Positions 15,636-57,651 of a stretch of DNA of 64,000 nucleotides are shown here, piece after piece; the stretch's first letter is position 1; every line of letters begins with the position of its first letter. Made by a program: the position numbers and the translations under genes. The notes under the pieces were generated by a model. It saw nothing but the letters and a program-made list of their open reading frames with translations. It was not told the origin of the DNA and ran no database searches. Source of the DNA: Alphaproteobacteria bacterium (GTDB lineage Bacteria > Pseudomonadota > Alphaproteobacteria > CAAHEQ01 > UBA3637); the NCBI GenBank assembly GCA_045631185.1, contig JAZQUH010000026.1, forward strand, positions 12,624-76,623, written 5' to 3'.

Positions 15636-18600
15636 TTATGGAATTGATGTTGCTGAATCAACATTCAACACCGCGTTAGGATAATTTTTAATACCTTGAG
15701 ATAATAACGTAAAATCTCCTGTTCCGGCATCGGATGTAGCTTGGCCAAAAGCAGTGGTTGCATTAATTGTCCCCTCATTGCGAATTCCATAAATTCCACA
15801 ATAAGAATCTGTGCAAGAATTTAAATGGGCGTATCCTTCTATATTTGTTGAGTTTAGAATGGCATTATTAAGAGCTAGGGCTACTCCTTGTGTATACGCC
15901 TGGGATGTTGCTTTTCCGATAATCTGGTCAACATTCGATGTTGTCGAACTCTGAAAAAATACCCCAAAGGCATGACATTTATTTCCAGAACATTCTGCTG
16001 TTCCTGAAACAGAAGTTCCTGTTATTTTAGCAGTATTGGAACCGGCAATTCTTACCCCATAAGATTGAGCGTTAGGTATATCTGTTGTTGTACTTCCAAT
16101 AACTTTTTTAACTTTCCAACTCTCCACGACTGAGACACCAGAAGGTTTTGAACTTCCAATTCCTTCGCCTTTTACTGTTTCTGCCGTTAAATTCCAGGCC
16201 CAAACACCATCAAGATATCCATCAGAAGAATTGCTTTCTGCTTTCCCATAAACTTCATTACCTGCTGTGCATGTTCCTGCGCAACTTATTCCTCTGTTGC
16301 TTGTGGTGTTTTCATCCCCTATGGATTCTCCCGTAATGTTGTTTTCGGCGATTAAGGTCCCGTACAAAACATCAATTCCAGAATTGTATTTTGCATGGGC
16401 TGTTATTTTACCAATAACATTTTTGGCTGAAAGGTGTCCTCCACCGATATCAATGGCGGCATTATGATCTGTATTTCCTACACTAATTCCGGTTATATCT
16501 TCTGATACTGTTACATAAGAAGAATCAGAGATAGTAATTCCACTTCCGTTTTGATTTGTGGCGCTTAAATTTTTTACTTTGAAGGTGTTTGCCGATACAC
16601 TTAGTCCACCGTCTATAATTAAATCACAATCAGATAAATCCATGTTTTGGGAAACGACCATATCACCTTTATAGTTGATTTGATTGTCGTTGAATGAAAA
16701 ACCTTCTTCTGTTTGTGATTCAGCATTTAATAAAAGGTATCCCGTATCTAACATTTCTTGACAACACACATTATTACCACACAAAGAAACTTCTACACAT
16801 CCTGTGGAATCTTCGTTTTGTTCATATCCTTCATTACAATAACAAGCAGTATTACCAATTTGATTGCCTTCAACAACGTTAGTGGATGAATTTTCAGGAC
16901 AACCACTGGTTGGACAAGCCATTTCCATTGGACAATTAACGGAATATTTTTTGTTCCTAAAATCATATCCCACCGCATTCTGACCAGACAATCCACCACC
17001 ACCACCAGCAAAAATCTGAATACCTGTATATTGAGAAGAATTAAGCGGTCCCATATTTCCATTATTAAACCAATAAGTGTAACCTGCAGGAGTATATCCC
17101 CAATAATCCGAAACAATTCCATTTCTTTTTAAAGCAGAACAAAAATTATAAGCAGTATCATAGGTAATATCTGTTTTTATAGCGTTATTTTTTACCACTT
17201 CTGTACATTCTACAGCTTTGCATTGACCACTGCACATTTGAGGAGCATTCGAAACATAATCTTCAGGATCAAAACTGCAATATTCTCCGGAATTACAGTC
17301 ATAATTATAAGAACATCCTGTCTCGCAAAGATTGGGTTGACAATTACCCTGGCCATCGCAAAATCCATTATCTGTTCCAAAAGAAGAATTTGTTTTACAT
17401 GATGTTCCAGAAGTTGCATATTCATATTCTTGAACACCATCTTTTGTTTGACAAGAAAGAATACAAGTTGACGGAGTGAAATTTTGACACATATCTAAAA
17501 AACATCCTGTTTTATCTTCATTCAGTTCATACCCTTCGTTACAATAACAAACAGTATTAGCTATTTGATTACCTTCAACAACGTTAGTGGATGAATTTTC
17601 AGGACAGGCACAAGCCGTTCCATTCCAAAGCAATCCTGCGTCACAAGCGCATTTTTCGCCCACTTGACAATTTACACAGGCGCTATGTTGATCATTGGCT
17701 TTTTTCCCAATTTCACAAACAGAACAAGCCGTCACACTGCCTCCAATACTATATTGATCAAATTGAGCACAAAAGACGCAGGTATTTCCGTTTTTGTAAT
17801 AGCCGGCCAGACAGGTAAAACCGTTTGTATCACAAGTGTCCACACCCGTTGTCGGACATTGAACACACGAATTTCCGCTTAAATAATAACCATCTTCACA
17901 TTCTGTCGGATTGCCATCTTCATCACATATTGCAACACCAGTTCCACAGGATGTGCAAGAATTTCCATTTTTATAATATCCGGCCAGACAGGTAAAGCCA
18001 TCATCATCACAAGTAGCAACTCCTGTTGTTGGGCAAGCAATACACAAATTTCCGCTTAAATAATAACCATCTTCACATTCCGTCGGATTGCCATCTTCAT
18101 CACAAGATAAAACATTTGCACCACATGATCTACATCTGATACCATCTTTATAATATCCTTCCTTACATTCAAAACCAGCACTTTGACAATTAATACTGTT
18201 TGTCGGACACTGAATACAAGCACCATTATGTAAAAAATATCCTGGAACACAACCTATGGGATTAAAATTTTCATCGCAAATGGTATTAGGCGGACATTCC
18301 TTGGGTTGAAGATTCCTATCTGGATTTCCCTGAGCAAATCCAGGAAATTTTTCAAAATAAAAAACAGCTTCATTATTGTCACAATTATCATCTTTTTTCA
18401 AAGCACCAAGATCTGATTCAAGTAATAACTCACACAAATGTTTATTTCCCAATGTTGTAATAATCCAAAACCAATCTTTATTTACCAGCCCTATACCATT
18501 TTCGATTTCAAAAAGAGTGTTGTATGGTCCGATTTCTGTACGTTTCATGGGTTTATGTTGTAAACCTGACATATTAATCTGCCGTGCATTTTTAATAGAA

Positions 18601-18746
18601 ATAATACGTTGAGATAAAACATTTGTTTGGCCTTTCAAAGACATTGTATTCCATGTATAAAAAACAACACCGCTGATCAAGCATATGATCGCAATAACCA
18701 ATGTTACCTCTATCAGAGTTTTTCCTCTTTCCTTACTATAAAACAC
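15636..18746 (-). CDS. prepilin-leader cysteine-repeat modular protein, subfamily A, member A1 (1036 aa)
   Basis: N-terminus MFYSKERG|KTLIEVTLVIAIICLISG (Gly-1, Glu+5, hydrophobic helix). Then a small globular module with 2 Cys, tandem CxxC / GYY modules, a lectin-like insert, and a Gly/Asn/Ser/Thr-rich C-terminal half. GTG start 4 nt after a GGAGG. Confidence 0.8.
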   Translation of the reverse strand: MFYSKERGKTLIEVTLVIAIICLISGVVFYTWNTMSLKGQTNVLSQRIISIKNARQINMSGLQHKPMKRTEIGPYNTLFEIENGIGLVNKDWFWIITTLGNKHLCELLLESDLGALKKDDNCDNNEAVFYFEKFPGFAQGNPDRNLQPKECPPNTICDENFNPIGCVPGYFLHNGACIQCPTNSINCQSAGFECKEGYYKDGIRCRSCGANVLSCDEDGNPTECEDGYYLSGNLCIACPTTGVATCDDDGFTCLAGYYKNGNSCTSCGTGVAICDEDGNPTECEDGYYLSGNSCVQCPTTGVDTCDTNGFTCLAGYYKNGNTCVFCAQFDQYSIGGSVTACSVCEIGKKANDQHSACVNCQVGEKCACDAGLLWNGTACACPENSSTNVVEGNQIANTVCYCNEGYELNEDKTGCFLDMCQNFTPSTCILSCQTKDGVQEYEYATSGTSCKTNSSFGTDNGFCDGQGNCQPNLCETGCSYNYDCNSGEYCSFDPEDYVSNAPQMCSGQCKAVECTEVVKNNAIKTDITYDTAYNFCSALKRNGIVSDYWGYTPAGYTYWFNNGNMGPLNSSQYTGIQIFAGGGGGLSGQNAVGYDFRNKKYSVNCPMEMACPTSGCPENSSTNVVEGNQIGNTACYCNEGYEQNEDSTGCVEVSLCGNNVCCQEMLDTGYLLLNAESQTEEGFSFNDNQINYKGDMVVSQNMDLSDCDLIIDGGLSVSANTFKVKNLSATNQNGSGITISDSSYVTVSEDITGISVGNTDHNAAIDIGGGHLSAKNVIGKITAHAKYNSGIDVLYGTLIAENNITGESIGDENTTSNRGISCAGTCTAGNEVYGKAESNSSDGYLDGVWAWNLTAETVKGEGIGSSKPSGVSVVESWKVKKVIGSTTTDIPNAQSYGVRIAGSNTAKITGTSVSGTAECSGNKCHAFGVFFQSSTTSNVDQIIGKATSQAYTQGVALALNNAILNSTNIEGYAHLNSCTDSYCGIYGIRNEGTINATTAFGQATSDAGTGDFTLLSQGIKNYPNAVLNVDSATSIP
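16821..16901 (-). repeat. 81 bp direct repeat, distal copy (inside A1)
   Basis: About 90 percent identical to 17526-17606 and exactly 705 bp (235 codons) away. Encodes CPENSSTNVVEGNQIGNTACYCNEGYE. Confidence 0.85.
17526..17606 (-). repeat. 81 bp direct repeat, proximal copy (inside A1)
   Basis: Encodes CPENSSTNVVEGNQIANTVCYCNEGYE. See partner at 16821-16901. Confidence 0.85.
17769..18218 (-). repeat. in-frame tandem repeat, 177 bp unit, about 2.5 copies (inside A1)
   Basis: atttccgcttaaataataaccatcttcacattc(t/c)gtcggattgccatcttcatcaca recurs at 17871 and 18048. tttttrtaatakccggccagacaggtaaa recurs at 17791 and 17968. Encodes CDEDGNPTECEDGYYLSGN...CPTTGV.TCD..GFTCLAGYYKNGN. Confidence 0.9.
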
Positions 18747-18755
18747 ACTTCCTCC

Positions 18756-20990
18756 CTAATAACAATATCTATTTTGCTGGCACCACGGTATATTTTGACA
18801 TTGAGCCGATTCAGAACTGGTGAAAGGTCCTTCTTCATCTAATTTAACCAAAGAACAACTACTTCCCTTTACTCGAGTAGCATAATTTTGAAGATAATAT
18901 TTTGCATTACCAACAAAAAGTTGGCCCTTTCCTACTTCGCAGGCCCCTTCATATTGAACAACCCGTGTTTTAAGGCTCTCCGAAACATTTCTTCCTACAA
19001 ACAATGAAGCAACTGTATCCACTTGCATATCACCACTGCCATTAATAGAACCACAAACAATAGTTTGAGAATTAATTGATTTTCCTGAATCTTTTATACC
19101 TGCTAAACGAACATTCCCCGTAACCGTCAAATCGCCACCAACCGCTAAATGATTCCAGTTTCTAAAATCTTCATTTATGCTTACATTTAAATTTTTTCCC
19201 ACAAGAATCTTTCCCATATTTAAAACATTATTACCTGCCAAAATATTAATACTACCATTAGGAACTGATATTTCAGCACCAAAATCAACATGGACAGTAT
19301 ATTGATTATCCTCATCAGAATCAGCTCTCTCGTCTGAAATAATAATATCACCATTTTTTGAAATAATTTTTCCCACAGCCTGAATTTGCTCAACAGAAAT
19401 AACACCTTCTGCTTCACCAGAAGAGATAACTGATGCTGTTATATAATCATCACTTTGAACATTATGAACACGACCAGAAACAGACACATAACGTCCAACT
19501 TTAATAGGGCTTAAGACATCCCTTGACGTAAGCAAACTTTCACCAGAAGCATAGCCAAGTATTTTTACTTCAGCTGGAGCAACCAGTTCAAAGGTCATCA
19601 TTGTTAAATTTCCACCAACTTTTAAATTTGCATTTGTATAAAAAGGTCCCATTATTTTCAAATCATCTGAACAAACTATTTTTTTACTGGAAATTCCAAT
19701 TTCTGAATCAGAATCATTTTCATATGTAAAAATTTCATTACCAGAAGAATTTATTACTAAATTTTTTGCAAAAACATTACCCAAAATATATGTTTCTGAA
19801 CCAGTTTCTATTCTCAAGTTACAATCCTGAAAATCCAAATCCTCTTTTATTATTATAGGTTCTGATGAATTTTGAGCTTTCAAGACAACCGTTTCTCCAC
19901 TTAATGAAGCCTTTATATTACCATCCAACGAAATTGAGTTCACCAAAGAAGCACAATCAACATTTTTCACACACGCAGTATGATCCGAATTATGTATATA
20001 ACCATCCGAACAAGGAGTACATTTTGTTGCACCTTCTGCACTGTAATGATTACTGGGACATCTCAGACAACCAGACTGTGTTTTATAATAACCCGCCTCG
20101 CATTTTTCAGAAGAAGTGGATGAAGCGGTCTTATGCCCTGAAGAAGGAGAATAAGAAGAACGCTTAACCGAGGCTGTGGGAGCAGCAACAGAACCAATCC
20201 CCCCTCTACTTCCGGAAACAGCCCCCCCCGTTCCACTACTCGAAGATTGAGAACAAAAACCTGGACCCAAAGTTGAACAGGGAACACAAGCACCATCAAT
20301 CGAATAATAATTAGGAAGACATTCTATAGGTTCTCCATTATCATTACAATTTCTCACACCTTCTCCACAAGTTACACACTCCCCATTGAGCGGACGATAA
20401 CCTATTTGGCATTCAAAAGCTTCACCCTCACAATTTGTACTCTTTTCCGGACATGGTTTACATTTTTTATCAGAAAGATAAAAACCAAAATAACAGTTAG
20501 TAATATTAAATTCCTCATCACATTCCGCATTTGCTGGACAAGCATCAGGTTGATTTTGCATATCGGGATCACCTTTTTGAGTGCTTTTATATTTAGAAAA
20601 ATAAAAAGTTACTTCATGACGAGAAGAACATTTCGCCTTATCAACTCTGATATAATCAATCTCTGAATCAGCCAAATACTTACACAACATTGAATTACCA
20701 ACTGTCACTGTTATCCAAAAGAAATTGGCATTTTTCTTTCCTACACCATTTTCAACCTTTAAAACAGAGCCATTTGGACCTTTTTCAGTTTGAATATCCT
20801 TATCCTCGCTATGAAGCTTTACAGACGCTTCACGAGCCGACTTCACAGAAACAACATATCTAGCAATCGTACGAGCTTCAACTTTTAAACGAGCTGAATT
20901 CCACAAAAAAACTGCAAAAAAACCCAATGATAAAACCGATATTAAAACTAATAACTTCCAATTGATTTTTCCATCTTGAATTAAAAACAT
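18756..20990 (-). CDS. subfamily A paralogue A2 (744 aa) with a degenerate prepilin motif
   Basis: N-terminal 230 aa are collinear with A1 and A3 (ENGVGKKNANFFWITVT..., CxxC modules), but the motif reads DG|KINWK (Glu+5 replaced by Lys). Ser/Gly-rich linker, then a beta-helix-like C-terminal half. Confidence 0.75.
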   Translation of the reverse strand: MFLIQDGKINWKLLVLISVLSLGFFAVFLWNSARLKVEARTIARYVVSVKSAREASVKLHSEDKDIQTEKGPNGSVLKVENGVGKKNANFFWITVTVGNSMLCKYLADSEIDYIRVDKAKCSSRHEVTFYFSKYKSTQKGDPDMQNQPDACPANAECDEEFNITNCYFGFYLSDKKCKPCPEKSTNCEGEAFECQIGYRPLNGECVTCGEGVRNCNDNGEPIECLPNYYSIDGACVPCSTLGPGFCSQSSSSGTGGAVSGSRGGIGSVAAPTASVKRSSYSPSSGHKTASSTSSEKCEAGYYKTQSGCLRCPSNHYSAEGATKCTPCSDGYIHNSDHTACVKNVDCASLVNSISLDGNIKASLSGETVVLKAQNSSEPIIIKEDLDFQDCNLRIETGSETYILGNVFAKNLVINSSGNEIFTYENDSDSEIGISSKKIVCSDDLKIMGPFYTNANLKVGGNLTMMTFELVAPAEVKILGYASGESLLTSRDVLSPIKVGRYVSVSGRVHNVQSDDYITASVISSGEAEGVISVEQIQAVGKIISKNGDIIISDERADSDEDNQYTVHVDFGAEISVPNGSINILAGNNVLNMGKILVGKNLNVSINEDFRNWNHLAVGGDLTVTGNVRLAGIKDSGKSINSQTIVCGSINGSGDMQVDTVASLFVGRNVSESLKTRVVQYEGACEVGKGQLFVGNAKYYLQNYATRVKGSSCSLVKLDEEGPFTSSESAQCQNIPWCQQNRYCY
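20222..20229 (-). repeat. G8 homopolymer tract (C8 on plus strand) inside the A2 coding sequence
   Basis: gccccccccg at 20221-20230 encodes part of SSGTGGAVSG. A second C6 run lies at 20199-20204. Confidence 0.95.
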
Positions 20991-27808: not shown

Positions 27809-28996
27809 TTATGCCGGAACACACTTACTTCCATTCCAAACAGGACGAGTAGCAGGGCAACAGGCCCCATATTGATGTCCTCTAGGTCTAAATCCAATAT
27901 CCGTATACACTTCATCTTCTGTGCAACAACGACCAACATTATCACCAAAATTGTTATTCGGACAATCAATCACACAATGATCATAATAATCATAGAGCGA
28001 AAAACTGATTCCAGGACATTTATTACAACCTGAAGAACTCCAATATGATGTTTGAACTCCACAGGTTATACACTGCCCCCATCCATCATAAAATTGGCCT
28101 GGTCCAGTACAAGGTTTATCACAACTTTCGCCCCAACCAGCATCTGATGTTAAAATTCGTACTCCTCCACATTGCTCAACACATTCTAAATTTTCCTCAT
28201 GAGTTTGATGGTGTGTGTATGCACCAGAATCACAGGATTGACATTTTGAAGCCTGATAGGAATAAAAAAAGCCGGGCGGACAACTTTCCAAAACACAAGC
28301 ATTGTTTCGGAAAACATATCCAATTCCCTCGTAAGTACATTTTGAACACTCTGCCTCAGAATCAGCGGAAAACTCTGTATAATCCTGAAAGAATGTCGGA
28401 CATTCTATACAAGTTCCTCTTGCTGATAACACAGGTTTATTCGGCGGACAAGAGTTATCACACAATGGTTCAGGAAAACAACGAGACATATTGCAATGAG
28501 CGCAATAACCGCAATCTGCATCAGAAGAACATTGTGCTTCACTTGATTTTAGTTCTTTTTGATACACTAAAGAAACCGTTGCATTATCAACACATTCTTC
28601 TGGATAAAAAGCAAAAATCGAAGTTCCAACACCCGCACTAAGCTTAGCATGTTTACAGACGTCTTTTTCAACACCTGAAACAGATAAAACAAAATAATTA
28701 TCTGTATGCTTAGCTATTTGCCCAAGATCATTTTTTACTTCTGTAGAAAAAGTACCATATCCTGATGTGTTGAATTCTGAAATATTAGGATCTTTTTTAT
28801 TTACCATTTGAATAGAAACAGAGGTTGCACGCAAAGAAGCCTCATGTAATAATGTATTTGCCTTACTTTTTGCCATTGAAGTTGTATAACCATATATTCC
28901 CCCAATACTCAAAACACCAATAACAGCTAATACACCCAACATTTCAACCATTGAGCGACCAGATTCTGGTTTTAGTTTTTTTCGACTAAAATACAT
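27809..28996 (-). CDS. prepilin-leader cysteine-repeat modular protein, subfamily B, member B1 (395 aa)
   Basis: MYFSRKKLKPESG|RSMVEMLGVLAVIGVLSIGGIYGY leader and helix. Pilin-like module with 2 Cys, then about 220 aa of CxxC / CPPGFF modules. Confidence 0.8.
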   Translation of the reverse strand: MYFSRKKLKPESGRSMVEMLGVLAVIGVLSIGGIYGYTTSMAKSKANTLLHEASLRATSVSIQMVNKKDPNISEFNTSGYGTFSTEVKNDLGQIAKHTDNYFVLSVSGVEKDVCKHAKLSAGVGTSIFAFYPEECVDNATVSLVYQKELKSSEAQCSSDADCGYCAHCNMSRCFPEPLCDNSCPPNKPVLSARGTCIECPTFFQDYTEFSADSEAECSKCTYEGIGYVFRNNACVLESCPPGFFYSYQASKCQSCDSGAYTHHQTHEENLECVEQCGGVRILTSDAGWGESCDKPCTGPGQFYDGWGQCITCGVQTSYWSSSGCNKCPGISFSLYDYYDHCVIDCPNNNFGDNVGRCCTEDEVYTDIGFRPRGHQYGACCPATRPVWNGSKCVPA

Positions 28997-29591
28997 AACG
29001 CCACCCCAAATAAATCATATGTTGAATACCTTCAAAAGAAACATTTTGTTTTTCTGAATCTTTAAATTTTTTATCCCCAAGATCCACATAACGATACCCT
29101 AAATCCAAACTCATCCGGCGATTAAGAGCAAAACTCAAACCTCCCCCAACATTCCACGCCATACCAGAAATATCAGAGCTGATACCAGGATCGGCTTTGA
29201 TTGTTCCCGAGTAATGACCAAGTCCTAAATTAACAAAAGGCATTACAGAACGAGACATAGGAAGTTCATAATACAACTGTGCACTATACATTTTATTTTC
29301 AAACTGATAATCACTCAAATCCGCTTTCGTATTAAATGCAAATTCAGCAGCCAAACGTAATCCTCCAAATTTAGCTCCCAAAGCAATATCAGCATTTAAG
29401 CCAGAATCTTTATCTGAAGTTGGCTCATTTTTAAAAACAGGCGAACGTGGACCCGATTTACCCTCTGTGATATTCATTCCTGCCATAGCCCCCACATAAA
29501 AGCCACTAAGCTGACGTGGCGTATAAGCGTAAACCACAGAAGTAAAGGATAACGCACCCATAAAAACAAAGCTCAACAAATAACGCATCAC
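28986..29591 (-). CDS. small outer-membrane beta-barrel protein (OmpA-like / OMP_b-brl type)
   Basis: Signal peptide, alternating amphipathic strands, terminal ...YLGWRYVF. 11-nt overlap with the B1 start. Confidence 0.75.
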   Translation of the reverse strand: MMRYLLSFVFMGALSFTSVVYAYTPRQLSGFYVGAMAGMNITEGKSGPRSPVFKNEPTSDKDSGLNADIALGAKFGGLRLAAEFAFNTKADLSDYQFENKMYSAQLYYELPMSRSVMPFVNLGLGHYSGTIKADPGISSDISGMAWNVGGGLSFALNRRMSLDLGYRYVDLGDKKFKDSEKQNVSFEGIQHMIYLGWRYVF

Positions 29592-36645: not shown

Positions 36646-36674
36646 TTGACAAAAACAAAAATCACTTGCAGAAT
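36646..36674 (+). promoter_or_regulatory. possible sigma70-like promoter TTGACA-N17-CAGAAT for A3
   Basis: TTGACA 36646-36651, 17 nt spacer, CAGAAT 36669-36674. Confidence 0.35.
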
Positions 36675-36720: not shown

Positions 36721-39366
36721 ATGCGCAAAACAGAATCGGGACGCTCTATTTTAGAAACGACACTGGTGATTGCTATCATTGTACTGTTAGTTGCAGGGAC
36801 TGTCACTGTATGGAATGTTTTTAAAGAGAAAAATCAAGTTCGTTCTTTGGAGGAACGATTGGTTGCCTTACGTTCAGAACGTCAAACCAATATTATCCCT
36901 AATTTAAGAAAACGATTAAAGCGGACAGAAGATGGGCCTTTTGAAACTCAAATCGAAATGGAAAATGGCATTGGCGATGTCAATAATGATTATTTTTGGA
37001 TTGTTGTAACAACACCTACTGTATCGCTTTGTAACGCATTAGAATCTGTGGATTCTGGAACGTTAAAATCTTCCAAAATCGAAAATTCATGCGCCGAAGA
37101 AAAAGCCATCACTTTTTATTTTAAAAAATTTGATAAAGCAGTCGGCGAACCTGATAAAACAAAACAACCAACAGATTGTCCTCTAAACGCTGTTTGTAAT
37201 GAATATTTAGAGGTCGTCAGTTGTAAAGATGGTTATTACCTATACCAAGGTGAATGTCTTCAATGTCCTGAAAACTATTCTATATGCAGCGGTATTAATT
37301 TCAGTTGTGGTGAAGGAAAATATCACGATAAAGCCTCTAATTCTTGTTTAGCGTGTAATAACAATGCAATTAAATGTGATGAATCAGGAAATCCATTAGA
37401 ATGTGGAAATGATTATTTTATGAAAAGAGATACTCAGGAATGTGTTCGTTGTCCTGAAATCGGTTTACAATTATGTGATACTTATACTTTTATATGCGAA
37501 GATGGTTACTTTAAATCTGGCGATATTTGTGATTACTGTGGAGATGGAATAAGCAAATGTGATATAGATGGTTCACCATTAGAATGCAAAGAAAACTATT
37601 ATATCATTACAGCAAATGGAGTAACAACATGTGAACAATGCCCAACGGTTGGTGTGTCACAATGTGATACCGATGGTTTTATATGTCAGGAAGGTTTTTA
37701 TAAAAAAAATAATTCTTGTATATCCTGTGGTACGGGAACAGAATCTTGCGACATAAATGGTGCTCCCCTAAAATGTAAAGATGGCTATTATCTTAAAACA
37801 GTAAACAACACTAAGCAATGCAATCAATGTCCAACAGAGGGCGTTGACAGTTGCACAACAAATGATTTTTCGTGTAAAATTGGTTATATAAAAGATAGCA
37901 ACAATGGTTCGTGTAACTGTAAAACAAATGGTCAACTTGGTAATGAATGTAGTGAACTTTGTTCAAATTCTTGTGCTGTTGGTTTTTGTAGCAATAATAA
38001 GTGTGTCCAAGAAACATGTCGTAAAACAGGCGATATAAACACCAATATTCTAATTACTTGTGATGCGGGACAAGTCTGTTTAGAAAACGGTTCTTGCGCA
38101 AGTGCTTGTCCATCTGGATATAATTCAGATGGTTATTGCTGTCCAGAAGGACAAAAATGGGATTCTGAAAATAAAATTTGTACTAATTGTCTGCAGGGTG
38201 CCGCATGTGGTTGCCCCCAAGATACACCTATTTCCGATGGTAATGGAAACTGTATTGCAAATTGTCCAGAAAACAGCTCTCGCACTGTTATAGAAGGCAA
38301 ACAAATCGGTACAACAGGATGCTATTGTAAAGAAGGATATCAAGTTCATGAAGATGGCTGTCTTTCTGTATGCCTGGGCGGTGCAGAATACACCACAGTA
38401 GAAAATGCAAAAGGAGAAGCCACTAACCTTGAAAATTGCTATTGTCCAGAAAACAAACCCTATTGGAATTTGGGAAGCGAAGAATGTACAGAAACTCAAG
38501 TGACAGATTGTACCGGCACTTTAACGGATGACGGAGCTTGTTGTCCCACTTACCGTGTTTATCAATCCGGGGAAGAAAATCTTTGTTGTAATTTAACATG
38601 CGAAAGCAACAGTCAAGTATTAGATATACAAACTTGTTCTTGTTTAGGATGTACAGGGGAAGGTTGTTGTCCAACAGGCAGTATTTTGTGTAATTTACAA
38701 TGTTGTGATATTGGTGCTGCATGCAACACAACCTCTCACCAATGTTGTGAAATTGGGGAAGTAGTCCTTAACGGTTTTTGTTGTCCTTTTGGCACAACCG
38801 CTGCCACATCAAATGGATGTTGTGAACCGGGGCAAAAGGTTATCAATAATCTTTGTTGTGATGTGGATGATTTAGATACCACGACTGTTAATCCTGAACG
38901 CACGGCATATACATGTTGTGACGGGGTTACTTTTGATTGGACAGGATATATAAATTGGATATCTTCTTATAGAGAAACATATAAGATTTGTTGCTCTGAA
39001 GGTAGTGGTGGTTATGCATATAATGATAAAAAATGCTGTGGCGAGGGAGAAACCGTTGTTGATGGACATTGTTGCCCGGCCGGCAGTACTCACTATGCCC
39101 CTGATGCTGATGGAAAATATATTTGCTGCAGTGATGATTTATATTCTGACTATGAAAAGAAATGCACCGATGGTGTTGAACGTTGGGTGGTCATCAGCGA
39201 ATGTTCCAAATTAAAAATCAGCTGCCCAAGAACTTCTAAACGTGCCTGCGGTTTGGATTGTTGTGAAGGCGATGAAAATTACTGTAATTTGGATGTTGAT
39301 ACAGGACTTTATTATTGCTGTAAAGACAGACATGAAGAAATAACTCAATGCGAAAGTAATTTATAA
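36721..39366 (+). CDS. prepilin-leader cysteine-repeat modular protein, subfamily A, member A3 (881 aa)
   Basis: MRKTESG|RSILETTLVIAIIVLLVAG. N-terminal module collinear with A1/A2 (ENGIGDVNNDYFWIVVTT). CxxC / GYY modules, then a CC-doublet-rich C-terminal third. Confidence 0.8.
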   Translation: MRKTESGRSILETTLVIAIIVLLVAGTVTVWNVFKEKNQVRSLEERLVALRSERQTNIIPNLRKRLKRTEDGPFETQIEMENGIGDVNNDYFWIVVTTPTVSLCNALESVDSGTLKSSKIENSCAEEKAITFYFKKFDKAVGEPDKTKQPTDCPLNAVCNEYLEVVSCKDGYYLYQGECLQCPENYSICSGINFSCGEGKYHDKASNSCLACNNNAIKCDESGNPLECGNDYFMKRDTQECVRCPEIGLQLCDTYTFICEDGYFKSGDICDYCGDGISKCDIDGSPLECKENYYIITANGVTTCEQCPTVGVSQCDTDGFICQEGFYKKNNSCISCGTGTESCDINGAPLKCKDGYYLKTVNNTKQCNQCPTEGVDSCTTNDFSCKIGYIKDSNNGSCNCKTNGQLGNECSELCSNSCAVGFCSNNKCVQETCRKTGDINTNILITCDAGQVCLENGSCASACPSGYNSDGYCCPEGQKWDSENKICTNCLQGAACGCPQDTPISDGNGNCIANCPENSSRTVIEGKQIGTTGCYCKEGYQVHEDGCLSVCLGGAEYTTVENAKGEATNLENCYCPENKPYWNLGSEECTETQVTDCTGTLTDDGACCPTYRVYQSGEENLCCNLTCESNSQVLDIQTCSCLGCTGEGCCPTGSILCNLQCCDIGAACNTTSHQCCEIGEVVLNGFCCPFGTTAATSNGCCEPGQKVINNLCCDVDDLDTTTVNPERTAYTCCDGVTFDWTGYINWISSYRETYKICCSEGSGGYAYNDKKCCGEGETVVDGHCCPAGSTHYAPDADGKYICCSDDLYSDYEKKCTDGVERWVVISECSKLKISCPRTSKRACGLDCCEGDENYCNLDVDTGLYYCCKDRHEEITQCESNL

Positions 39367-45348: not shown

Positions 45349-48180
45349 TTAATTTTTAATACATTTATGGGTTATTGGATCTTCACGGTATGAAGATGTA
45401 ACAACTTCAGTGGCTCTTATATCCAATTCACCAACAGCCACGTGAATGCTCGAAGACTTTGTCCCACTGACGGACCAAGATGACAATACTTTCAAACGCC
45501 AATAAGAATGAGCAGTAGGTGAATTCACCGACACAGTATAAGAAGCACCAGATTCATTGGAGGGATTTGTTCCCGTGGCAACCGTTATCCAATTTGAATT
45601 ATTATCAGAATATTGCAATTCAAAATCCGCAACACCCAAATTTCCCACACCTCCAGAACCATATATTCGATTATGAATAACAATAGAAATTATTTTTGTC
45701 GGTGTTTTCGTATACCAAGACAACCATTTATTTGATTCTTCTCGAGTATGCCAACAATCTATTTCTGGGTTGCTATTAATCTTGTCAAATGCCCGCCATG
45801 CCTTTCTGTTGCTGTCTATTTCAGAAGAAGCCTGTGTTGCAAACGCACTGACTCCAAACGTACCATTACTGGTCAATTTAGGCTGACTCCATTGAGTCTC
45901 TATTTCTCCCACACAATTGGCACAATCAGTGGTACAAGTACCATTGGAACACACTTCACACAAACCAGTACAATCTTCATTCACCGTACAGCTTTGACCA
46001 ACCGTAGCATTTAAGCATTGACATGAACCAAGGTAAGAACAATCGGCGGTTTGCGGTTCTGAGCATTTAATACATTCCGTGGATGAACAATCAGCATTTT
46101 CATTTGTATCTATACATACACCCGCACCACGAACAAAAGGTATCTTTATTTGTTGGGTATTGGTACATACCGTACAATTATAATCATTACATTCATATTG
46201 TTGATTGTTGTCCACACACACGCACGAACCGTATTTGGCACAAACAGGGGTTTGATCATCGCTACATTCAATACAATCGCCCGAATTATTGCACGCCATA
46301 TTACCACATGAACACACGCCATCGGAACAATCCAACATCCGGCCCGGATCACACGGCAAACACATTGTTTCATTGCAAACCGCCTCTTTACCCGCCGGCA
46401 AGCAAATACAAATGGAACCGTCTTCATTGCATCCTGGGTTTTCATCCGCTTCACAGAAAATACATTGTTTTTGTGAACAATATCCTGTTTTATCATTTGG
46501 AACACAGATACAATCACCCGATTGTTCACCTTCGCAACAGGTTTCTTCGGCTTGGGTACAATAGGCTGTTTCACCTTCCTCACAAACAATGCATTCACCA
46601 TGGTTTTCATAACATGAACAATAATCACCACCCTTGGTACATTCAACATTGGTGGTACCAGCATCCACACATATACATTCGGACACGTCATGTGAATATT
46701 GGGGACATTTTAATTCCTGACCTGAGGCACATTTTTTGCAAAGATCTCCATATTCACCCGTACATATAATTTCTTCACTTTCGTCTAAACATTCACATTT
46801 ACTTTCAGGAGGTTCATAATAACCACCAGAAGTCCAACAACGGGCTTTTTTATCCGACGGACATGAAATACAGGCATCACCTTCACCATAATAGTAGTCA
46901 ACGCACGCACTTTCTGCATTTTCCGGCACGCACTTGCAACCCGAAGATACAGAAGAATAACACCACATACAATTATCAACATACTCCGGACAAATGGCTT
47001 TTTGTCCCTCAGGACAAACTGTACATACATCTGATGTCAAAGAACCACAACCGCATGAATCATAACCATCAATACAATCGGCTGTTTCACCATCTTTTAT
47101 ACAAGCACACCCAGCGCCAGAACACACTCTGGTTTCACCGGGACCACAAAATGTACACACGGAATAATCATCACATTGGGTGTTTTCATCGGAATAAACA
47201 CATGCACACCCTCCCCCTGGTGTGGTCCAATCTACGGCATTTGCACAAACGGGTGTTTGATCCTGAGGACAACTCACACAACTGTGCGAACTACAATCAT
47301 AATTATTACCGCAAACGCATGGTGTGTGTTCATAGTCTCTGTAAGAATCGCTATCAGAATAACCAGAACAATGTGCTGGTCCTTGTTCGGCCGTACATTG
47401 AACACAATAAGGTGTTCCATATCCTCCAACACAATCATAGGTATCACCATCGGCAACACAAATTATTTGACCATTATCTAATTCAGATTCAACACAATCC
47501 ACGCACTGTCCCTTACGACATGTTTGCCCTTCATCACACAAAACATCAGAACAACAATCCGAAGGATTTGACAAACAGGCGGAAACGCCATTGCCTGCAT
47601 CCTCACACCAATATGCATTATTTGCTTCACACTCTTCAGGATTATTAATGCTATTCAAAAGCTTTTTCGTTGACAAATCCCGATTATATACCACTGCCAT
47701 TTTTGCCGATTCATAGCAATCATTGGCAGAGGTCATCGGGCTGCGCTCACGTGATTGCAAAGAACGAATAGTCTGATTATTACCGCCACTGCCCACAATA
47801 CCAAACACTCTTTTACAAACATTTTTGGGAACACCATCCATAATAATGGCAAATTGCCAATCATCCGGCCCCGGTGGCGTTGAAAACTTTGAGGGTTTTC
47901 CAATTGAAAAATTAATACCATCTACATAATCTGAATTTTGGGAATATTCTGACAATGTCGGTGCAAGTCCCAACATCATTGATGAAGAAACCGTTGCCGC
48001 ACGTAAAGTCACTTCATGCATCAAATTATTGGCTTTGTAACGTTCCATTGCTGTTTTATATCCCGCAACACCACCCACGGATAAAACACCCATAACAGCC
48101 AACACACTCAACGTTTCAAGCATCGTGCGACCATATTCTGTAATCTTTTTCTTTTTTAATAACGTTACAGACTTTTCCAT
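45349..48180 (-). CDS. prepilin-leader cysteine-repeat modular protein, subfamily B, member B2 (943 aa) with a C-terminal discoidin-like domain
   Basis: ...KKKKITEYG|RTMLETLSVLAVMGVLSVGGVAGY. Pilin-like module. About ten C-x2-C-...-C-x-C-[VIL] modules. C-terminal AWRAFDKINSNPEIDCWHT...FELQYSDNNSNWITVATG...YWRLKV...GELDI resembles an F5/8 type C domain. Confidence 0.8.
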   Translation of the reverse strand: MEKSVTLLKKKKITEYGRTMLETLSVLAVMGVLSVGGVAGYKTAMERYKANNLMHEVTLRAATVSSSMMLGLAPTLSEYSQNSDYVDGINFSIGKPSKFSTPPGPDDWQFAIIMDGVPKNVCKRVFGIVGSGGNNQTIRSLQSRERSPMTSANDCYESAKMAVVYNRDLSTKKLLNSINNPEECEANNAYWCEDAGNGVSACLSNPSDCCSDVLCDEGQTCRKGQCVDCVESELDNGQIICVADGDTYDCVGGYGTPYCVQCTAEQGPAHCSGYSDSDSYRDYEHTPCVCGNNYDCSSHSCVSCPQDQTPVCANAVDWTTPGGGCACVYSDENTQCDDYSVCTFCGPGETRVCSGAGCACIKDGETADCIDGYDSCGCGSLTSDVCTVCPEGQKAICPEYVDNCMWCYSSVSSGCKCVPENAESACVDYYYGEGDACISCPSDKKARCWTSGGYYEPPESKCECLDESEEIICTGEYGDLCKKCASGQELKCPQYSHDVSECICVDAGTTNVECTKGGDYCSCYENHGECIVCEEGETAYCTQAEETCCEGEQSGDCICVPNDKTGYCSQKQCIFCEADENPGCNEDGSICICLPAGKEAVCNETMCLPCDPGRMLDCSDGVCSCGNMACNNSGDCIECSDDQTPVCAKYGSCVCVDNNQQYECNDYNCTVCTNTQQIKIPFVRGAGVCIDTNENADCSSTECIKCSEPQTADCSYLGSCQCLNATVGQSCTVNEDCTGLCEVCSNGTCTTDCANCVGEIETQWSQPKLTSNGTFGVSAFATQASSEIDSNRKAWRAFDKINSNPEIDCWHTREESNKWLSWYTKTPTKIISIVIHNRIYGSGGVGNLGVADFELQYSDNNSNWITVATGTNPSNESGASYTVSVNSPTAHSYWRLKVLSSWSVSGTKSSSIHVAVGELDIRATEVVTSSYREDPITHKCIKN

Positions 48181-48203: not shown

Positions 48204-48233
48204 ATATTATCTTACTATTTAACCTATTGTCAA
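48204..48233 (-). promoter_or_regulatory. sigma70-like promoter (minus strand) TTGACA-N18-TAATAT for B2
   Basis: Reverse complement: TTGACA (48233-48228), 18 nt spacer, TAATAT (48209-48204). Confidence 0.45.
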
Positions 48234-50835: not shown

Positions 50836-51795
50836 TTATCTTCCATTTACTAATGGATGTGGAATTTCGCATTGATGCTTAGAGCTTAGCTTTGTTGTTA
50901 TATTTGGATTAACAACTTTTGTATTATAAAATCGAATGCCGGGTGTATTTGAAAATAAAGGGCTTATTGTCCCAACGCACTTTTGAGAAAACAATGTATA
51001 TATCATTTGTCCGAGTGTTGGTTTTTGAGCTTCATAAAATTCCTCTAATTTCTTAAATACATTCAACAAATGTGGCGGAAACTCTAGTCCAACAGGCAGA
51101 GAATCATTACCTACTGAAATTCTTTTTTTCAATACGTCAAAAGAAGTCATTCTGCTGTCAAAAAGGCGATCATCTAATTGAACAGGTGTTCTCGAGTTGA
51201 GTGGTGCATCTTTTTTCAGGCCTATATCCAAAAAATCATCCTCTCGGATTTTGCCATCTTCATGGTAAGGATAAAGAAGGATTTTATAATAATTTCTGTT
51301 CAAATCACCGGTTGGAAAAATTTCTTTTTTATCAGCTAATTGTTTAATTTCTTCTGGAGTATGTTCAGCCGGATTAAAACCACTCACTTTTCCATCAATT
51401 GATTGAAACCAATTGATTTCGCCTACCTCTGAAATCGCTGCTAAATAAGTCAGCCCATTACTCATCTTGATTTGTGAAAACATAGGACGCCCTGGCATTG
51501 CAAAAGTATTTGTATGAGGCATCGGTAAAGTGTTTTGGGGCATACAATAAAAAAAATGTAAAAACTTATCTATTGTCTTTTTTTCTAAAGGTTCTTCTGG
51601 AGTTGTATAAATTCGCTTTATTTCTTGAATGCTAGCGGGTTCTATAATTTTATCTGCAATCGTTTTTTGGGTATAGAAAGTGGCTTTCTTAAAAAATGCC
51701 CCAAAACAAAAAAGATGTTTTATATCTTCAAAAGGGCTACTCTTTTTGACACTTTTTGAAGAATTAACAGTTACGGAATAATTTGCAGTAGACAT
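50836..51795 (-). CDS. hypothetical protein (319 aa)
   Basis: Long ORF with no signal peptide and no recognisable motif. Bounded by R1b and R2a. Confidence 0.55.
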   Translation of the reverse strand: MSTANYSVTVNSSKSVKKSSPFEDIKHLFCFGAFFKKATFYTQKTIADKIIEPASIQEIKRIYTTPEEPLEKKTIDKFLHFFYCMPQNTLPMPHTNTFAMPGRPMFSQIKMSNGLTYLAAISEVGEINWFQSIDGKVSGFNPAEHTPEEIKQLADKKEIFPTGDLNRNYYKILLYPYHEDGKIREDDFLDIGLKKDAPLNSRTPVQLDDRLFDSRMTSFDVLKKRISVGNDSLPVGLEFPPHLLNVFKKLEEFYEAQKPTLGQMIYTLFSQKCVGTISPLFSNTPGIRFYNTKVVNPNITTKLSSKHQCEIPHPLVNGR

Positions 51796-52157: not shown

Positions 52158-53312
52158 TTACTCAAAGATACACTCTTTTCCCACATATTTACGGTTTGGA
52201 CATTTATCACATTCTTGTTTGGAGCTTTTATAATTTCTTACTGCTTCAAAATGGGTCATTCCACCGCCAGTAGTTTCTCTAAAAATATCTCCACTGCAAG
52301 GAATACAGGTTCCTGTCTCATTTTTAAAAGATTCTTTTGGACATTCTTTCAGACTACACCTATTTTGACTATATTCGCGATTAGAACATAGTAAACATTC
52401 TTCTTTAGAACTTTCGTGGTCTAGTGGGTCACCACAGCGCAGACAATATCCATCTTTATGTTTAAATTTCCCTTCTGGGCATTTTTTTAAAAAGCACATG
52501 TGTCCATCGTATTCGCGATTAGCACACTTTGAACATTCTTCTTCATCAGTACCTAATCCATACCATCCGCCTCCAAAAACGGGGTTCTTCTCTTCAGAAC
52601 ACTTAACGCAATGACAAGCTTGATAAAATAAATTATATCCAATGAATTCATTTTCTCCACATTTACATTTTTCTTTAATTTTAGCGATTAAATTTTCTTT
52701 TTTTAAACGACATTGACCATGATCTGCAATATATTCACGATTGGGACATTCATTACATACAGATTGTTGAACAAAATAATAATCTCCATCATTATCACAA
52801 GCAAAACAATCCAATCTGTCTGTTTTTATCATTCCATCTGGACATTTTTTTAAAGCACAGTATCCGTTCGTATTTTCACGATTTGGGCACAAATCGCATA
52901 TTTTGGGAGATACTTGAACAGCATTCAAAAAATTGCAATCATGGTCTGCCATCGGTTTATCTTTTAAAACACAAAAACCATCTACATATATATGTTCTGA
53001 ACATCTTCTGCACTCCTCTTCAGTTGTGATGGTATTATATGAATGGTCACAAGAGTTGCACCACCAATTATATTTTCCTAGTTGGTTTAATCCTCTGAAC
53101 TCATTTTTTTTACACTTTATAACACAGTCTCCATCTATATATTCCCGATCAGAGCACTTAATACATTCTGTTTCTTCTATATCTTGAACTCCAAAAAATG
53201 AATTACAAGATAAACATTTCCCTTTATATACAACTGGCCTATCAGCTGGGCATTCTATTGCTAAAACAGGAAACGAAAAACATAATAATAATAAAAAGAA
53301 TAATTTTTTCAT
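52158..53312 (-). CDS. Sec-signal cysteine-repeat protein (about 384 aa) built from EC-x2-C-x-NREY ... C-x-LK-x-CP-x-G modules
   Basis: MKKLFFLLLLCFSFPVLA signal peptide; the ATG at 53312 follows a GGGAG Shine-Dalgarno. About 8 repeats such as EEECSKCANREYDGHMCFLKKCPEGKFKHKDGYCLRCG. Confidence 0.7.
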   Translation of the reverse strand: MKKLFFLLLLCFSFPVLAIECPADRPVVYKGKCLSCNSFFGVQDIEETECIKCSDREYIDGDCVIKCKKNEFRGLNQLGKYNWWCNSCDHSYNTITTEEECRRCSEHIYVDGFCVLKDKPMADHDCNFLNAVQVSPKICDLCPNRENTNGYCALKKCPDGMIKTDRLDCFACDNDGDYYFVQQSVCNECPNREYIADHGQCRLKKENLIAKIKEKCKCGENEFIGYNLFYQACHCVKCSEEKNPVFGGGWYGLGTDEEECSKCANREYDGHMCFLKKCPEGKFKHKDGYCLRCGDPLDHESSKEECLLCSNREYSQNRCSLKECPKESFKNETGTCIPCSGDIFRETTGGGMTHFEAVRNYKSSKQECDKCPNRKYVGKECIFE

Positions 53313-53400
53313 AAAATCTCCCTTTCTCTTTTTCATTATCGTACCAGATTATTTCATAAAACACAATGGGTTATTTTATTTGCGATTAGATTTTGGGGTT

Positions 53401-53571
53401 CTTGCCGGACTTGAACTTGAATAAGATATTGATTTATAAAGAAATAATTTTTAAGAGTTCGATAAATTACGGAAATAGGCACTTTTGGAAGGGGTGTTTA
53501 TCGAACCCTTATAAAGGCTTGGAAAATAATAAAAAAACAACACCCAAGATGGGAGTTGTATGTTTTGGTAC
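53401..53571 (+). repeat. repeat R2, copy b (~171 bp), abutting tRNA-Leu
   Basis: See R2 copy a. Its terminal ttttggtac is the tRNA 3-prime end. Confidence 0.8.
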
Positions 53572-53652
53572 CTCCAGCCGGACTTGAACCAGCACCTTAT
53601 CACTAAGAGCAGATTTTGAGTCTGCCGCGTCTACCAATTCCGCCATGGAGGC
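53566..53652 (-). tRNA. tRNA-Leu (anticodon CAA), 87 nt with long variable arm and encoded CCA
   Basis: Reverse complement GCCTCCATGGCGGAATTGGTAGACGCGGCAGACTCAAAATCTGCTCTTAGTGATAAGGTGCTGGTTCAAGTCCGGCTGGAGGTACCA folds as a cloverleaf. It has a 7 bp acceptor stem, anticodon loop CTCAAAA and T-loop TTCAAGT. Confidence 0.93.
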
Positions 53653-54168: not shown

Positions 54169-54176
54169 GGAATAAC

Positions 54177-54811: not shown

Positions 54812-54824
54812 AAATTGATTAAAA

Positions 54825-56484: not shown

Positions 56485-56512
56485 TTAAACTGAAATCTAC
56501 CCTCCAATAAAT

Positions 56513-56535: not shown

Positions 56536-56565
56536 AAAGTAAAAAAGTAATTTTAAATGCGGGGG

Positions 56566-57651
56566 CTAACGAACACACAAAAAATCGTAGCTGGCACGAG
56601 CATCGGCGCTGATGTTGCGCATGCCGTTCTCGACATAGTACGCAGAATAGGAATCATACACATCCGCTGTCCATAAAGTATGACCGAATTCAAATCTTAA
56701 TGCACCATAAACGGTACCATCTGTGGGGCAAGGTTCATACACTAGACTACCTTCACAGCCCAAATCGGATAAGCTGACCATACGCATATTTAAGGACGCA
56801 CAAACATCATTGGCTGTCCACCAATTAGGAATACAAGATCCACCATGATCTGAGCCGGTATATTTTTTACCATCGCTGATATCTATATCATACAGCCCAC
56901 AACCCGATACAGACTGACATACGCCAGAGGTTGAGGGTGGTGCGACTTGAGGAAACTGACAATATTCCCCTTTATCGCAATCCGCATAAGATGAACAGGT
57001 ATTATCATCACCTTTGGATTCGCATGTGCCCTCTTTATAAACGGTACCGGATGTTTCGCAATAACACATACTGTTATCCGCCAAGGTGGTGGCATAACCG
57101 CCCGCACCTTCCGTGGATGTCCCCGTCGGACAAGGAGAGGTTTCTGGAATACCTTCATTACCTTCACTTTCCGGCTTATCATTTGCCGATAAATCCTTGT
57201 TAAATGTTAAAATGGCAATCAAATCACCATCTTCATTATTGACGCATTCTACTTCACGCACAACGGAACGGGAACCACCGGCCATCGATTGCATTTGTTG
57301 ACATAATTCTTCATCCAACCCTTCCAAAGTCAAGGTAAACTGTTCATCAGATCTCGCATAATCCGTATAACCATCCGGTCCTTTTACAGTATTGGATATT
57401 GTAACACCACCACCCAAATCATTATCAAAAGCATCATTTGTCAAATCTTCCAAATTACCTGAACCTATTTTGGTGGCAACATCCGTAGCACGCATAGAGG
57501 CCTGATTCAATAAATTATTGGCTAAAGCCTTTCTGACAGCAGCTTTATATCCCGCAACACCAGTGACACTTAAAACACCGATAATCGCCAACACGCCCAG
57601 CATTTCAACCATAGAACGGCCTGTTTCGTTTGTTTTTATTAAATTTTGCAT
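56566..57651 (-). CDS. prepilin-leader cysteine-repeat modular protein, subfamily B, member B3 (361 aa) with a lectin-like C-terminal module
   Basis: MQNLIKTNETG|RSMVEMLGVLAIIGVLSVTGVAGY. Pilin-like module with 2 Cys, P/S/T/G/E linker, then CSSYADCDKGEYCQF...NWWTANDVCASLNMRMVSLSDL...YDFLCVR. Confidence 0.8.
   Translation of the reverse strand: MQNLIKTNETGRSMVEMLGVLAIIGVLSVTGVAGYKAAVRKALANNLLNQASMRATDVATKIGSGNLEDLTNDAFDNDLGGGVTISNTVKGPDGYTDYARSDEQFTLTLEGLDEELCQQMQSMAGGSRSVVREVECVNNEDGDLIAILTFNKDLSANDKPESEGNEGIPETSPCPTGTSTEGAGGYATTLADNSMCYCETSGTVYKEGTCESKGDDNTCSSYADCDKGEYCQFPQVAPPSTSGVCQSVSGCGLYDIDISDGKKYTGSDHGGSCIPNWWTANDVCASLNMRMVSLSDLGCEGSLVYEPCPTDGTVYGALRFEFGHTLWTADVYDSYSAYYVENGMRNISADARASYDFLCVR

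Follow-up and report, generated by a model that had tools for sequence, protein, structure and literature searches.

What do six genes encode that are scattered among the housekeeping genes of an uncultured alphaproteobacterium and whose products share a prepilin-like N-terminal plan followed by extensions rich in cysteine? This question is raised by a 64-kb stretch of contig JAZQUH010000026.1 (hereafter the window, meaning the whole stretch that was analysed), for which a sequence-only reading had proposed an adhesin repertoire displayed on a pilus. The present analysis suggests that the six genes probably encode modular type IVb pilin-like adhesins, which would be minor or tip subunits of a pilus resembling the bundle-forming pilus (BFP). 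Parts of the proposal hold, among them the pilin-derived module and two of the cargo folds, whereas the identities suggested for the Cys repeats do not and the pilus operon was seen only in relatives.

All six open reading frames (ORFs) are present in the window ORF list exactly at the positions first given for them and their summed length is also as claimed (13,098 bp, i.e., 20.5% of the window). They are named w1 to w6 and described below, the slash in each leader standing after the Gly that would precede the cleavage site.

w1: 15636..18746 (-), 1036 aa, subfamily A, leader VFYSKERG/KTLIE; pilin module (~1-150), CxxC..GYY repeats (~150-430), more Cys-rich sequence, Cys-poor C-terminal ~400 aa
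w2: 18756..20990 (-), 744 aa, subfamily A paralogue with the degenerate leader DGKINWK; pilin module, then Cys repeats, a Ser-rich linker and a Cys-poor C-terminal region
w3: 27809..28996 (-), 395 aa, subfamily B, leader ...KPESG/RSMVE; pilin module, then a Cys-rich extension of ~240 aa (32 Cys)
w4: 36721..39366 (+), 881 aa, subfamily A, leader MRKTESG/RSILE; pilin module, then a Cys-rich extension of ~730 aa (103 Cys, 11.7%)
w5: 45349..48180 (-), 943 aa, subfamily B, diverged leader ...ITEYG/RTMLE; pilin module, Cys-rich region of ~600 aa (99 Cys in the whole protein), C-terminal discoidin domain
w6: 56566..57651 (-), 361 aa, subfamily B, leader MQNLIKTNETG/RSMVE; pilin module, linker, small Cys-stabilised beta-hairpin region, C-terminal domain predicted to be lectin-like

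A six-frame scan of the window for a G-x4-E motif followed by a hydrophobic stretch gives seven matches. Five are the N-termini of w1, w3, w4, w5 and w6 (GKTLIE, GRSILE, GRTMLE and, twice, GRSMVE), and the remaining two are internal membrane segments of an AcrB-type resistance-nodulation-division (RND) pump and of a fusion protein of the major facilitator superfamily type. The leader with Gly and Glu at +5 that had been attributed to all six proteins is found in five of them, w2 carrying Lys instead of Glu+5. Over its first ~175 aa, w2 shares 30-42% identity with w1 and w4 and is clearly their paralogue; its homologue P0123 has lost the Gly as well. Because of the loss of Glu+5, and of Gly-1 too in this homologue, w2 is probably uncleaved and unpolymerised. 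It may be a membrane-anchored partner of its downstream neighbour w1.

The motifs described for the two subfamilies are borne out. In the three A paralogues, E81, N82, G83, G85, N88, F92, W93 and I94 are invariant, and the B motif GRSMVEMLGVLA.IGVLS..G..GY is exact in w3 and w6 and diverged in w5 (GRTMLETLSVLAVMGVLSVGGVAGY). The two Cys announced for each N-terminal module were also recovered (e.g., C104/C124 and C117/C136). Outside the window, the G-x4-E motif is carried by 112 of 120 B-type and 57 of 62 A-type homologues. Among those bearing it, all 112 B-type proteins and 50 of the 57 A-type proteins have Arg at +1, which is a lineage-wide trait and no peculiarity of this window; two classical GFTLIE pilins turn up at the weak end of the A-profile search. 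Arg or Lys at +1 had been considered a surprise. The residue is confirmed whereas the surprise is softened because type IVb pilins are known to vary at +1. Comparison of the w3 and w6 leaders reveals 10 synonymous changes and only one non-synonymous change in 18 codons. Since these differences are mostly synonymous, the codons indicate purifying selection on the leader peptide. A recent gene conversion of the leaders was also considered and is ruled out by the same mostly synonymous differences.

The proposal that the N-terminal modules are derived from pilins is supported by profile-profile comparisons, by an in-register profile match to structures of the PDB and by AlphaFold models showing a helix and a beta-sheet. 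In hhalign comparisons, subfamilies A and B match each other at 99.3% over 166 columns. The short pilins encoded by the pilus operons of relatives (see below) match subfamily A at 98.9% over 113 columns and subfamily B at 99.9% over 122 columns. These matches are not confined to the helix: they continue into the head as far as the first Cys. Furthermore, a profile of 66 w6 orthologues matches solved type IV pilins in register (8tob, E 7e-4), MVEMLGVLAIIGVLSvgGiagY being paired with LIELMIVVAIIGILAAIAIPQY and Glu16 falling on Glu5. The AlphaFold model of full-length w6 (pLDDT 85) has a helix at residues 14-64 and then a beta-sheet head, and that of w4 residues 1-165 (pLDDT 94.1) a helix at residues 6-57, five beta-strands, two short helices and the pair Cys104/Cys124. 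In both models, the predicted N-terminal helix has 51-52 residues and the small beta-sheet head holds both Cys. The corresponding features are:

w4 N-terminal pilin-like module: 36721..37170 (+); the AlphaFold2 model spans residues 1-165 (36721..37215)
w6 class III-type signal peptide and alpha-1 helix: 57460..57651 (-), residues 1-64

The names given to relatives in public databases point to another explanation, namely that these proteins are ordinary pseudopilins of a type II secretion system (T2SS). Among the 2,313 homologues of w6 found at E<=1e-3, named relatives are called 'MAG: type II secretion system protein [Alphaproteobacteria bacterium]' at NCBI (MAG, metagenome-assembled genome) or 'pseudopilin PulG' at JGI. 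In the same way, NCBIfam scans of the six proteins, taken like the Pfam scans to E<=1, give weak sub-threshold matches to GspH (13.8 bits vs a cut-off of 80) and PRK10574 (16-19.5 vs 138). However, lengths of 361-1036 aa and adhesin-type cargo fit pseudopilins poorly, and the best profile relatives are type IVb pilins. T2SS-specific genes were found neither in the window nor in the related loci, where Gsp C/D/L/M/K give no match; the earlier observation that the 64-kb window holds no pil or gsp gene also stands, according to Pfam and phmmer. Ordinary T2SS pseudopilins are therefore highly improbable.

Downstream of the pilin module, the six proteins carry very different cargo. Cys makes up 4.2-11.7% of whole w1 to w6, vs 1.35% of the other 32 large ORFs of the window, and the CxxC..GYY units of w1 recur with a period of 29-30 residues. 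Cys-rich extensions exist in all six proteins, but they do not consist 'almost entirely' of Cys repeats, as first described, since w1 and w2 end in ~400 aa that are poor in Cys. The likeness of the repeats to furin-like, ephrin-receptor-like or protist surface-antigen repeats finds no support from the furin-like, ephrin, GCC2_GCC3, EGF or VSP families of Pfam. At E<=1, the only Cys-repeat matches are VSP (0.27) and NCD3G (0.0094, 16.2 bits vs a cut-off of 38.9), both in w2, and at the sequence level the comparison with furin, ephrin or VSP is a resemblance only. With the C-terminal extensions of w1, w4 and w5 as queries, sequence searches of the PDB gave no meaningful relative.

The lectin and F5/8 type C domains that had been guessed were recovered in w6 and w5, respectively, and not in the other four proteins:

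w5 F5/8 type C (discoidin, galactose-binding-like) domain: 45472..45834 (-), residues 783-903, from Pfam
w6 C-type-lectin-like (CTLD/Link-type) fold: 56572..57003 (-), residues ~217-360, from Foldseek and PDB profile matches

The discoidin domain of w5 exceeds the Pfam thresholds (PF00754, 35.0 bits vs a cut-off of 28.2; PF22633, 39.0 vs 27.8). For w6, the whole-protein Foldseek search is dominated by the C-terminal domain. Its ~145 aa match the C-terminal domain of Bdellovibrio Bd2740 (prob 1.00, TMt 0.59-0.60, identity 10-13%), the carbohydrate-recognition domain (CRD) of MGL (prob 0.98), Lcl from Legionella (prob 0.94) and LYVE-1 (prob 0.89). C-type-lectin-like domain (CTLD) matches, including TC14, are found at prob 0.9-1.0, TMt 0.43-0.60 and E 6e-3 to 0.2. 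PDB profile matches include langerin (E ~0.05), langerin and the mannose receptor together spanning E 0.05-0.6. According to these structural predictions, the C-terminal ~145 aa of w6 have a C-type-lectin-like fold. Pfam Lectin_C matches neither w6 nor its 65 orthologues, and inspection of the w6 sequence by eye reveals no calcium/sugar motif (EPN/QPD or WND). A hidden Markov model (HMM) of this module finds 57 copies in 33 ORFs of related loci and no copy in w1-w5; a lectin-like module suspected by eye in w1 was dropped because this HMM gives no match there. The C-terminal folds of w5 and w6 are of the adhesin/lectin type. Furthermore, in close homologues of w6 the N-terminal ~165 aa are 70-83% identical whereas the C-terminal modules differ, which is the pattern expected of a carrier with swapped cargo.

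The family is large and dispersed. Scanning one genome per species yields at least 597 matching stretches, and the best 80 come almost entirely from MAGs of uncultured Alphaproteobacteria or of a proteobacterium, the exceptions being two bins labelled Acidaminococcaceae and Gastranaerophilales. These sequences come from the gut or rumen of humans (Hadza, Nepal), pig, roe deer, goat, sheep, buffalo, yak, rabbit and mouse. The host-associated lifestyle that had been suggested is in agreement with this, all relatives being gut or rumen MAGs. The 79 sampled loci contain 121 family members, with mature lengths of 43-1,633 aa and often in tandem arrays of 3-5, and one homologue reaches 2,356 aa. The N-terminus of subfamily A is far rarer: 62 representative clusters were recovered by an exhaustive profile search, unlike a word-indexed homology search with this N-terminus, which found nothing.

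At the lower end of the size range, locus L022 (16001-18179) holds four tiny pilin genes (120-131 aa) within ~2.2 kb; three of them form a tandem on the (-) strand and the fourth is on the (+) strand. All have an identical NENGRSMVEMLGVLAIIGVLS leader, and they adjoin a 322-aa lectin-type member. Since these small pilins share the leader, the family ranges from very short proteins made of a pilin alone up to giant modular ones. In another assembly, w1 is represented by a truncated version of 181 aa (P0121). A contig of the same species (L093, ~97% nucleotide identity) carries a seventh member ~7.5 kb past the right end of the window:

seventh member: L093:10635-11801 (-), 388 aa, leader MQNETG/RSLVEILGVLAIIGVLS

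This 106-kb contig stops at window coordinate 57687, inside the promoter-like region of w6, and it may be that family genes are places where assemblies break or strains differ.

Which filament could carry such proteins? A BFP-like type IVb cluster was found in five GTDB species-representative loci (L046, L052, L061, L072 and L073) and on six metagenome contigs (L087-L092). It encodes, in this order, TcpQ/BfpG, a secretin (BfpB), PilO2/BfpC, a protein of ~480-510 aa, a BfpD-type ATPase, a BfpE-type platform protein and one to three short pilins; at most loci it is closed by a BfpF-type retraction ATPase. This gene order agrees with that of the annotated operons used as references, i.e., BFP and a plasmid type IVb operon. 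In phmmer comparisons, E values are 1e-92 to 2e-97 for BfpD, ~1e-62 to 2e-64 for BfpE and 6e-51 to 6e-60 for BfpB. The short operon pilins are above threshold for PF08805 PilS (4.9e-18) and PF05307 Bundlin (4.9e-14) and share the leader GRSMVEMLGVLAIIGVLS with the window family. By comparison, neither Pfam family matches w1-w6, and PilS is matched weakly by 8 of the 66 w6 orthologues (best 9.5e-5). For the cluster ATPase, 2,719 homologues were recovered at E<=1e-50, the top 120 being 82-97% identical; these numbers and identities argue for a functional and conserved pilus system.

A partial link between this machinery and the window is provided by locus L032, whose NusA is 74% identical to that of the window. 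In L032, a BfpF-like ATPase and a 374-aa family member flank rimP-nusA-infB, and in parallel the rimP-nusA-infB genes of the window are flanked by w2/w1 on one side and by w3 on the other.

The surroundings of the clusters deserve a few remarks of their own. In two loci, the first operon 'pilin' (L087:12829-13389 and L046:9266-9934), with a weak Bundlin/PilS match, is devoid of the Gly-x4-Glu motif and parallels the degenerate leader of w2. In L087 (1-4949) and L090 (1-4910), the type IVb cluster and a VirB-type type IV secretion operon (TrbC/VirB2 copies, VirB4) are placed back to back. A lectin-type family member also adjoins the VirB11 / VirB10 (2,147 aa) / VirB9 end of a VirB-type operon in L001 (12250-21044). 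Downstream of the pilus cluster, three species (L046:12891-16994; L087:15696-19785; L090:15875-19990) share conserved neighbours, in order a phosphoribosyltransferase, a Redoxin/AhpC-TSA-type thiol-disulfide protein and VWA / PP2C phosphatase / Ser-Thr kinase genes. The redoxin could be relevant to the folding of disulfide-rich pilins.

It should be stressed that several results weigh against w1-w6 being subunits of such a pilus. Searches for an A24 prepilin peptidase by phmmer, by a small HMM made from BfpP, a plasmid A24 peptidase and GspO, and by a filter combining GxGDxK with transmembrane segments were negative for the window and for ~1.4 Mb of related loci. The pilus operon was not seen for this genome within the 64 kb plus ~10 kb of same-species contig. 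No pilus operon encodes any of the sampled modular members, the operons of relatives holding only short pilins. The N_methyl and TIGR02532 profiles remained below their cut-offs (14.2 and 11.3 bits vs 21.2; 13.7 vs 16.3), N_methyl reaching E<=0.01 in only 6 of the 66 w6 orthologues. A Foldseek search of the N-terminal model of w4 against pilin structures gave no significant match: the best was ARPC2 (E 0.055), while C. difficile PilW was found at prob 0.60 and S. Typhi PilS at prob ~0.2. To our knowledge, there is no precedent for Arg at +1. Finally, disulfide-rich cargo of up to ~900 aa would need to cross the secretin.

The peptidase result, which extends to all sampled sequences, speaks for the possibility that the N-terminus descends from a pilin ancestor but serves as a signal anchor that is not cleaved. 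The proteins would then be periplasmic or envelope proteins tethered to the inner membrane and would never be polymerised. Arg at +1, unusual for a peptidase substrate, would fit this. The same is true for w2 and P0123, which have lost Gly-1 and/or Glu+5 and yet are full-length ORFs, so that at least some members function without the motif. Nevertheless, Gly-1, Arg+1 and Glu+5 are almost invariant in more than 160 homologues, and selection acting on the leader at the amino-acid level would be hard to explain for a plain membrane anchor. An identical segment is found on the operon-encoded major pilins, which must be cleaved and polymerised, and lectin-like and discoidin modules would make little sense in the periplasm. 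For the family as a whole, an uncleaved anchor is thus distinctly unlikely; at least for w2, it is likely.

In the window, the modular genes sit among housekeeping genes outside any compact secretin/ATPase/platform/peptidase operon. According to another alternative, the class III signal and the type IV filament machinery could serve for export or anchoring at the surface, in a pseudopilus-like stub or a surface layer and not in long pili; class III-signal sugar-binding proteins of Sulfolobus or a T2SS-like piston display would be analogues. This would account for the size and dispersal of the family described above and for the lack of any operon-encoded modular member in the sample. It would also suit the names 'type II secretion system protein' and 'PulG', and the bulk of the cargo, which speaks against frequent entry into a thin filament. 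However, those names are generic labels for the N-terminal motif, and GspC/L/M/K-type components were not found in the loci. Furthermore, the sole filament system of the type IV class that was recovered from relatives resembles BFP and includes a retraction ATPase as well as major pilins of the bundlin/PilS type. Export or anchoring by a stub or surface layer is, on balance, unlikely.

Display on a BFP-like pilus is the reading that is retained as probable. The pilin module would comprise ~150 residues: a signal with Gly-1, Arg/Lys+1 and Glu+5, an alpha-1 of ~50 residues and a small disulfide-bonded beta-sheet head. Cys-rich rod-like repeats, a C-type-lectin-like domain or a discoidin domain would be grafted onto it as cargo. 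A prepilin peptidase would cut after the Gly; alpha-1N would then anchor the protein in the inner membrane while the Cys-rich modules fold and oxidise in the periplasm. The BFP-like machinery (secretin, BfpC/PilO2-like protein, BfpD extension ATPase, BfpE platform and BfpF retraction ATPase) would build the pilin module into the filament, where it would be a minor or tip subunit of low abundance. A retractable filament made of a short bundlin/PilS-type major pilin would in this way show one of many alternative adhesin heads to host or other cell surfaces in the gut. A more daring version, which is conceivable although rather unlikely in its entirety, is that a single conserved BFP-like pilus bears, in a combinatorial display, dozens of interchangeable giant tip or minor subunits that are encoded by dispersed full-length genes, have the Arg+1 signal and are cleaved by a divergent or non-A24 peptidase; the latter is supposed because no A24 enzyme was found by the operon or in the sampled DNA.

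The six genes are arranged in various ways. w2 lies directly upstream of w1 in tandem, w1 starting 9 nt past the stop of w2. The start of w3 is overlapped by 11 nt by the upstream gene of an outer membrane beta-barrel protein (OMP_b-brl / Opacity-like; 28986..29591, (-)), and the two are probably co-transcribed. A promoter of its own had been described for each locus. TTGACA-N16-18-TAnnnT-like sites exist before w4, w5 and w6 and not before w1-w3:

promoter-like site 5' of w4: 36646..36674 (+), TTGACA-N17-CAGAAT, consensus match only
promoter-like site 5' of w5: 48204..48233 (-), TTGACA-N16-GATAAT or N18-TAATAT, consensus match only
promoter-like site 5' of w6: 57685..57713 (-), TTGACA-N17-TAGTAT, consensus match only

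With GC contents of 0.356-0.436, the six genes lie on both sides of the value for the rest of the window (0.392). A horizontal-transfer origin was considered, and these values give no compositional signal of it.

The remainder of the window is of the housekeeping type, with ChlI-like ATPase, RNase HII, SpoT, rimP-nusA-infB, MetRS, the RND pump, RecR, YebC, RuvC and DnaA genes. The pump is encoded by an ORF of 1,500 aa (40524-45026, (+)) which unusually fuses an AcrB-type transporter (ACR_tran, residues 3-1024) to a TolC-like OEP region (to residue 1495); it is preceded by a membrane-fusion protein gene (39445-40527). Between infB and w3, the gene of a zeta-toxin-like kinase (26832-27671, (-)) and that of an APH-family phosphotransferase (25955-26839, (-)) overlap. 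Two ORFs without Pfam match (50836-51795, (-), 319 aa; 52158-53336, (-), 392 aa) occupy the part of the window with the lowest GC (0.33) and adjoin its only tRNA gene, tRNA-Leu(CAA) (53566-53652, (-)).

An ankyrin-repeat ORF (60362-62164, (+)) stands between ruvC and dnaA. It is absent from the same-species contigs L093 and L094, where the alignment jumps from window position 60395 to 62209, and a variant of 539 aa is found in L095; the ORF is an insertion that varies between strains. As dnaA itself (62372-63769, (+), with Bac_DnaA domains) lies close to the right end and the cumulative GC skew has its minimum at ~52-58 kb, the replication origin may be in or near the right end of the window.

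The uncultured Alphaproteobacteria that carry this family occur widely, both in gut metagenomes of humans (Hadza and Nepal samples among them) and in the intestines of livestock, rabbit and mouse. No description of the pili of this lineage was found in the literature. If the proposed role is true, about one fifth of the window would code for alternative adhesin heads of a retractable type IVb pilus, a class otherwise best known from enteric pathogens (BFP, the toxin-coregulated pilus TCP and the colonization factor antigen CFA/III). The concept of modular pilins would also be extended to a family of thousands of proteins missed by standard signatures, to larger cargo (proteins of up to 1,036 aa in the window and a homologue of 2,356 aa) and to a new +1 residue. 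In the same way, unclassified disulfide-rich repeats and bacterial C-type-lectin-like heads with testable ligands would be added to it.

As regards known systems, pilins grafted with other domains have already been described. A modular pilin is defined as an N-terminal pilin module joined to at least one module that is not specific to pilus biology, and an InterPro survey has listed more than 1,200 of them, with 264 architectures and a largest size of 860 aa (Raynaud et al. 2021, PMC8179133). In Streptococcus sanguinis, PilB (vWA module) and PilC (lectin module) are experimentally supported adhesins (PMC8179133). The window family fits the definition through the F5/8 type C domain of w5, the predicted CTLD fold of w6 and the Cys-rich extensions of all six proteins. 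Like modular pilins, it has a small pilin module joined by a linker to a binding module, for which a tip-exposed role in adhesion has been proposed (PMC8179133). It differs from the catalogued ones in escaping the IPR012902/PF07963 signature from which the catalogue was built (PMC8179133). The novelty is smaller than the sequence-only reading had assumed, because the architecture itself is published (PMC8179133), to which the window family would add a large, unusual variant. Unlike the S. sanguinis proteins, the members of the family are type IVb-like and from a diderm, have Arg at +1 and carry mostly unclassified Cys-rich cargo. They are also dispersed and multi-copy (six in 64 kb) instead of being encoded by one or two operon genes.

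Among type IVb pili, the minor pilins CofB, TcpB and LngB from enterotoxigenic E. coli and Vibrio cholerae combine a type IVb pilin domain with beta-rich C-terminal domains and are thought to be tip-located and to bind. The window family would be a functional analogue of CofB and TcpB, although CofB, TcpB and LngB are single-copy, operon-encoded and devoid of Cys-rich repeats. In the Foldseek search with w6, CofB was a non-significant match (rank 32, prob 0.05). These three minor pilins are also discussed in the survey of modular pilins (PMC8179133).

The relatives of the window resemble BFP of enteropathogenic E. coli and the R64 / S. Typhi PilS thin pilus in carrying BfpG/B/C/D/E/F homologues in BFP order. 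They also have bundlin/PilS-type pilins and a +1 residue that is not Phe, as in type IVb pilins generally. Their cluster differs from those of BFP and R64 by being chromosomal and conserved in commensal gut Alphaproteobacteria, by Arg at +1 and by the lack of an in-cluster prepilin peptidase (BfpP/PilU) or lytic transglycosylase, and the window proteins are encoded outside any such operon.

The PilV shufflon of R64 would be another functional analogue: a constant pilin N-terminus is followed there by alternative C-terminal segments that set binding specificity and are swapped by site-specific DNA inversion at a single locus. In the window, no shufflon or recombinase was seen and the alternatives are separate full-length genes scattered among housekeeping genes. 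Lastly, the C-terminal fold of w6 is shared with the tip domain of Bd2740-type fibres of Bdellovibrio and with other C-type-lectin-like or Link domains. Unlike that of Bd2740, it is carried by a pilin and not by a trimeric fibre, and no canonical calcium/sugar-binding motif is visible in it. Compared with all these systems, what is new is the type IVb setting in a diderm gut commensal, the invariant Arg+1, the invisibility to standard signatures, the unclassified disulfide-rich cargo, the copy number and the dispersal among housekeeping genes.

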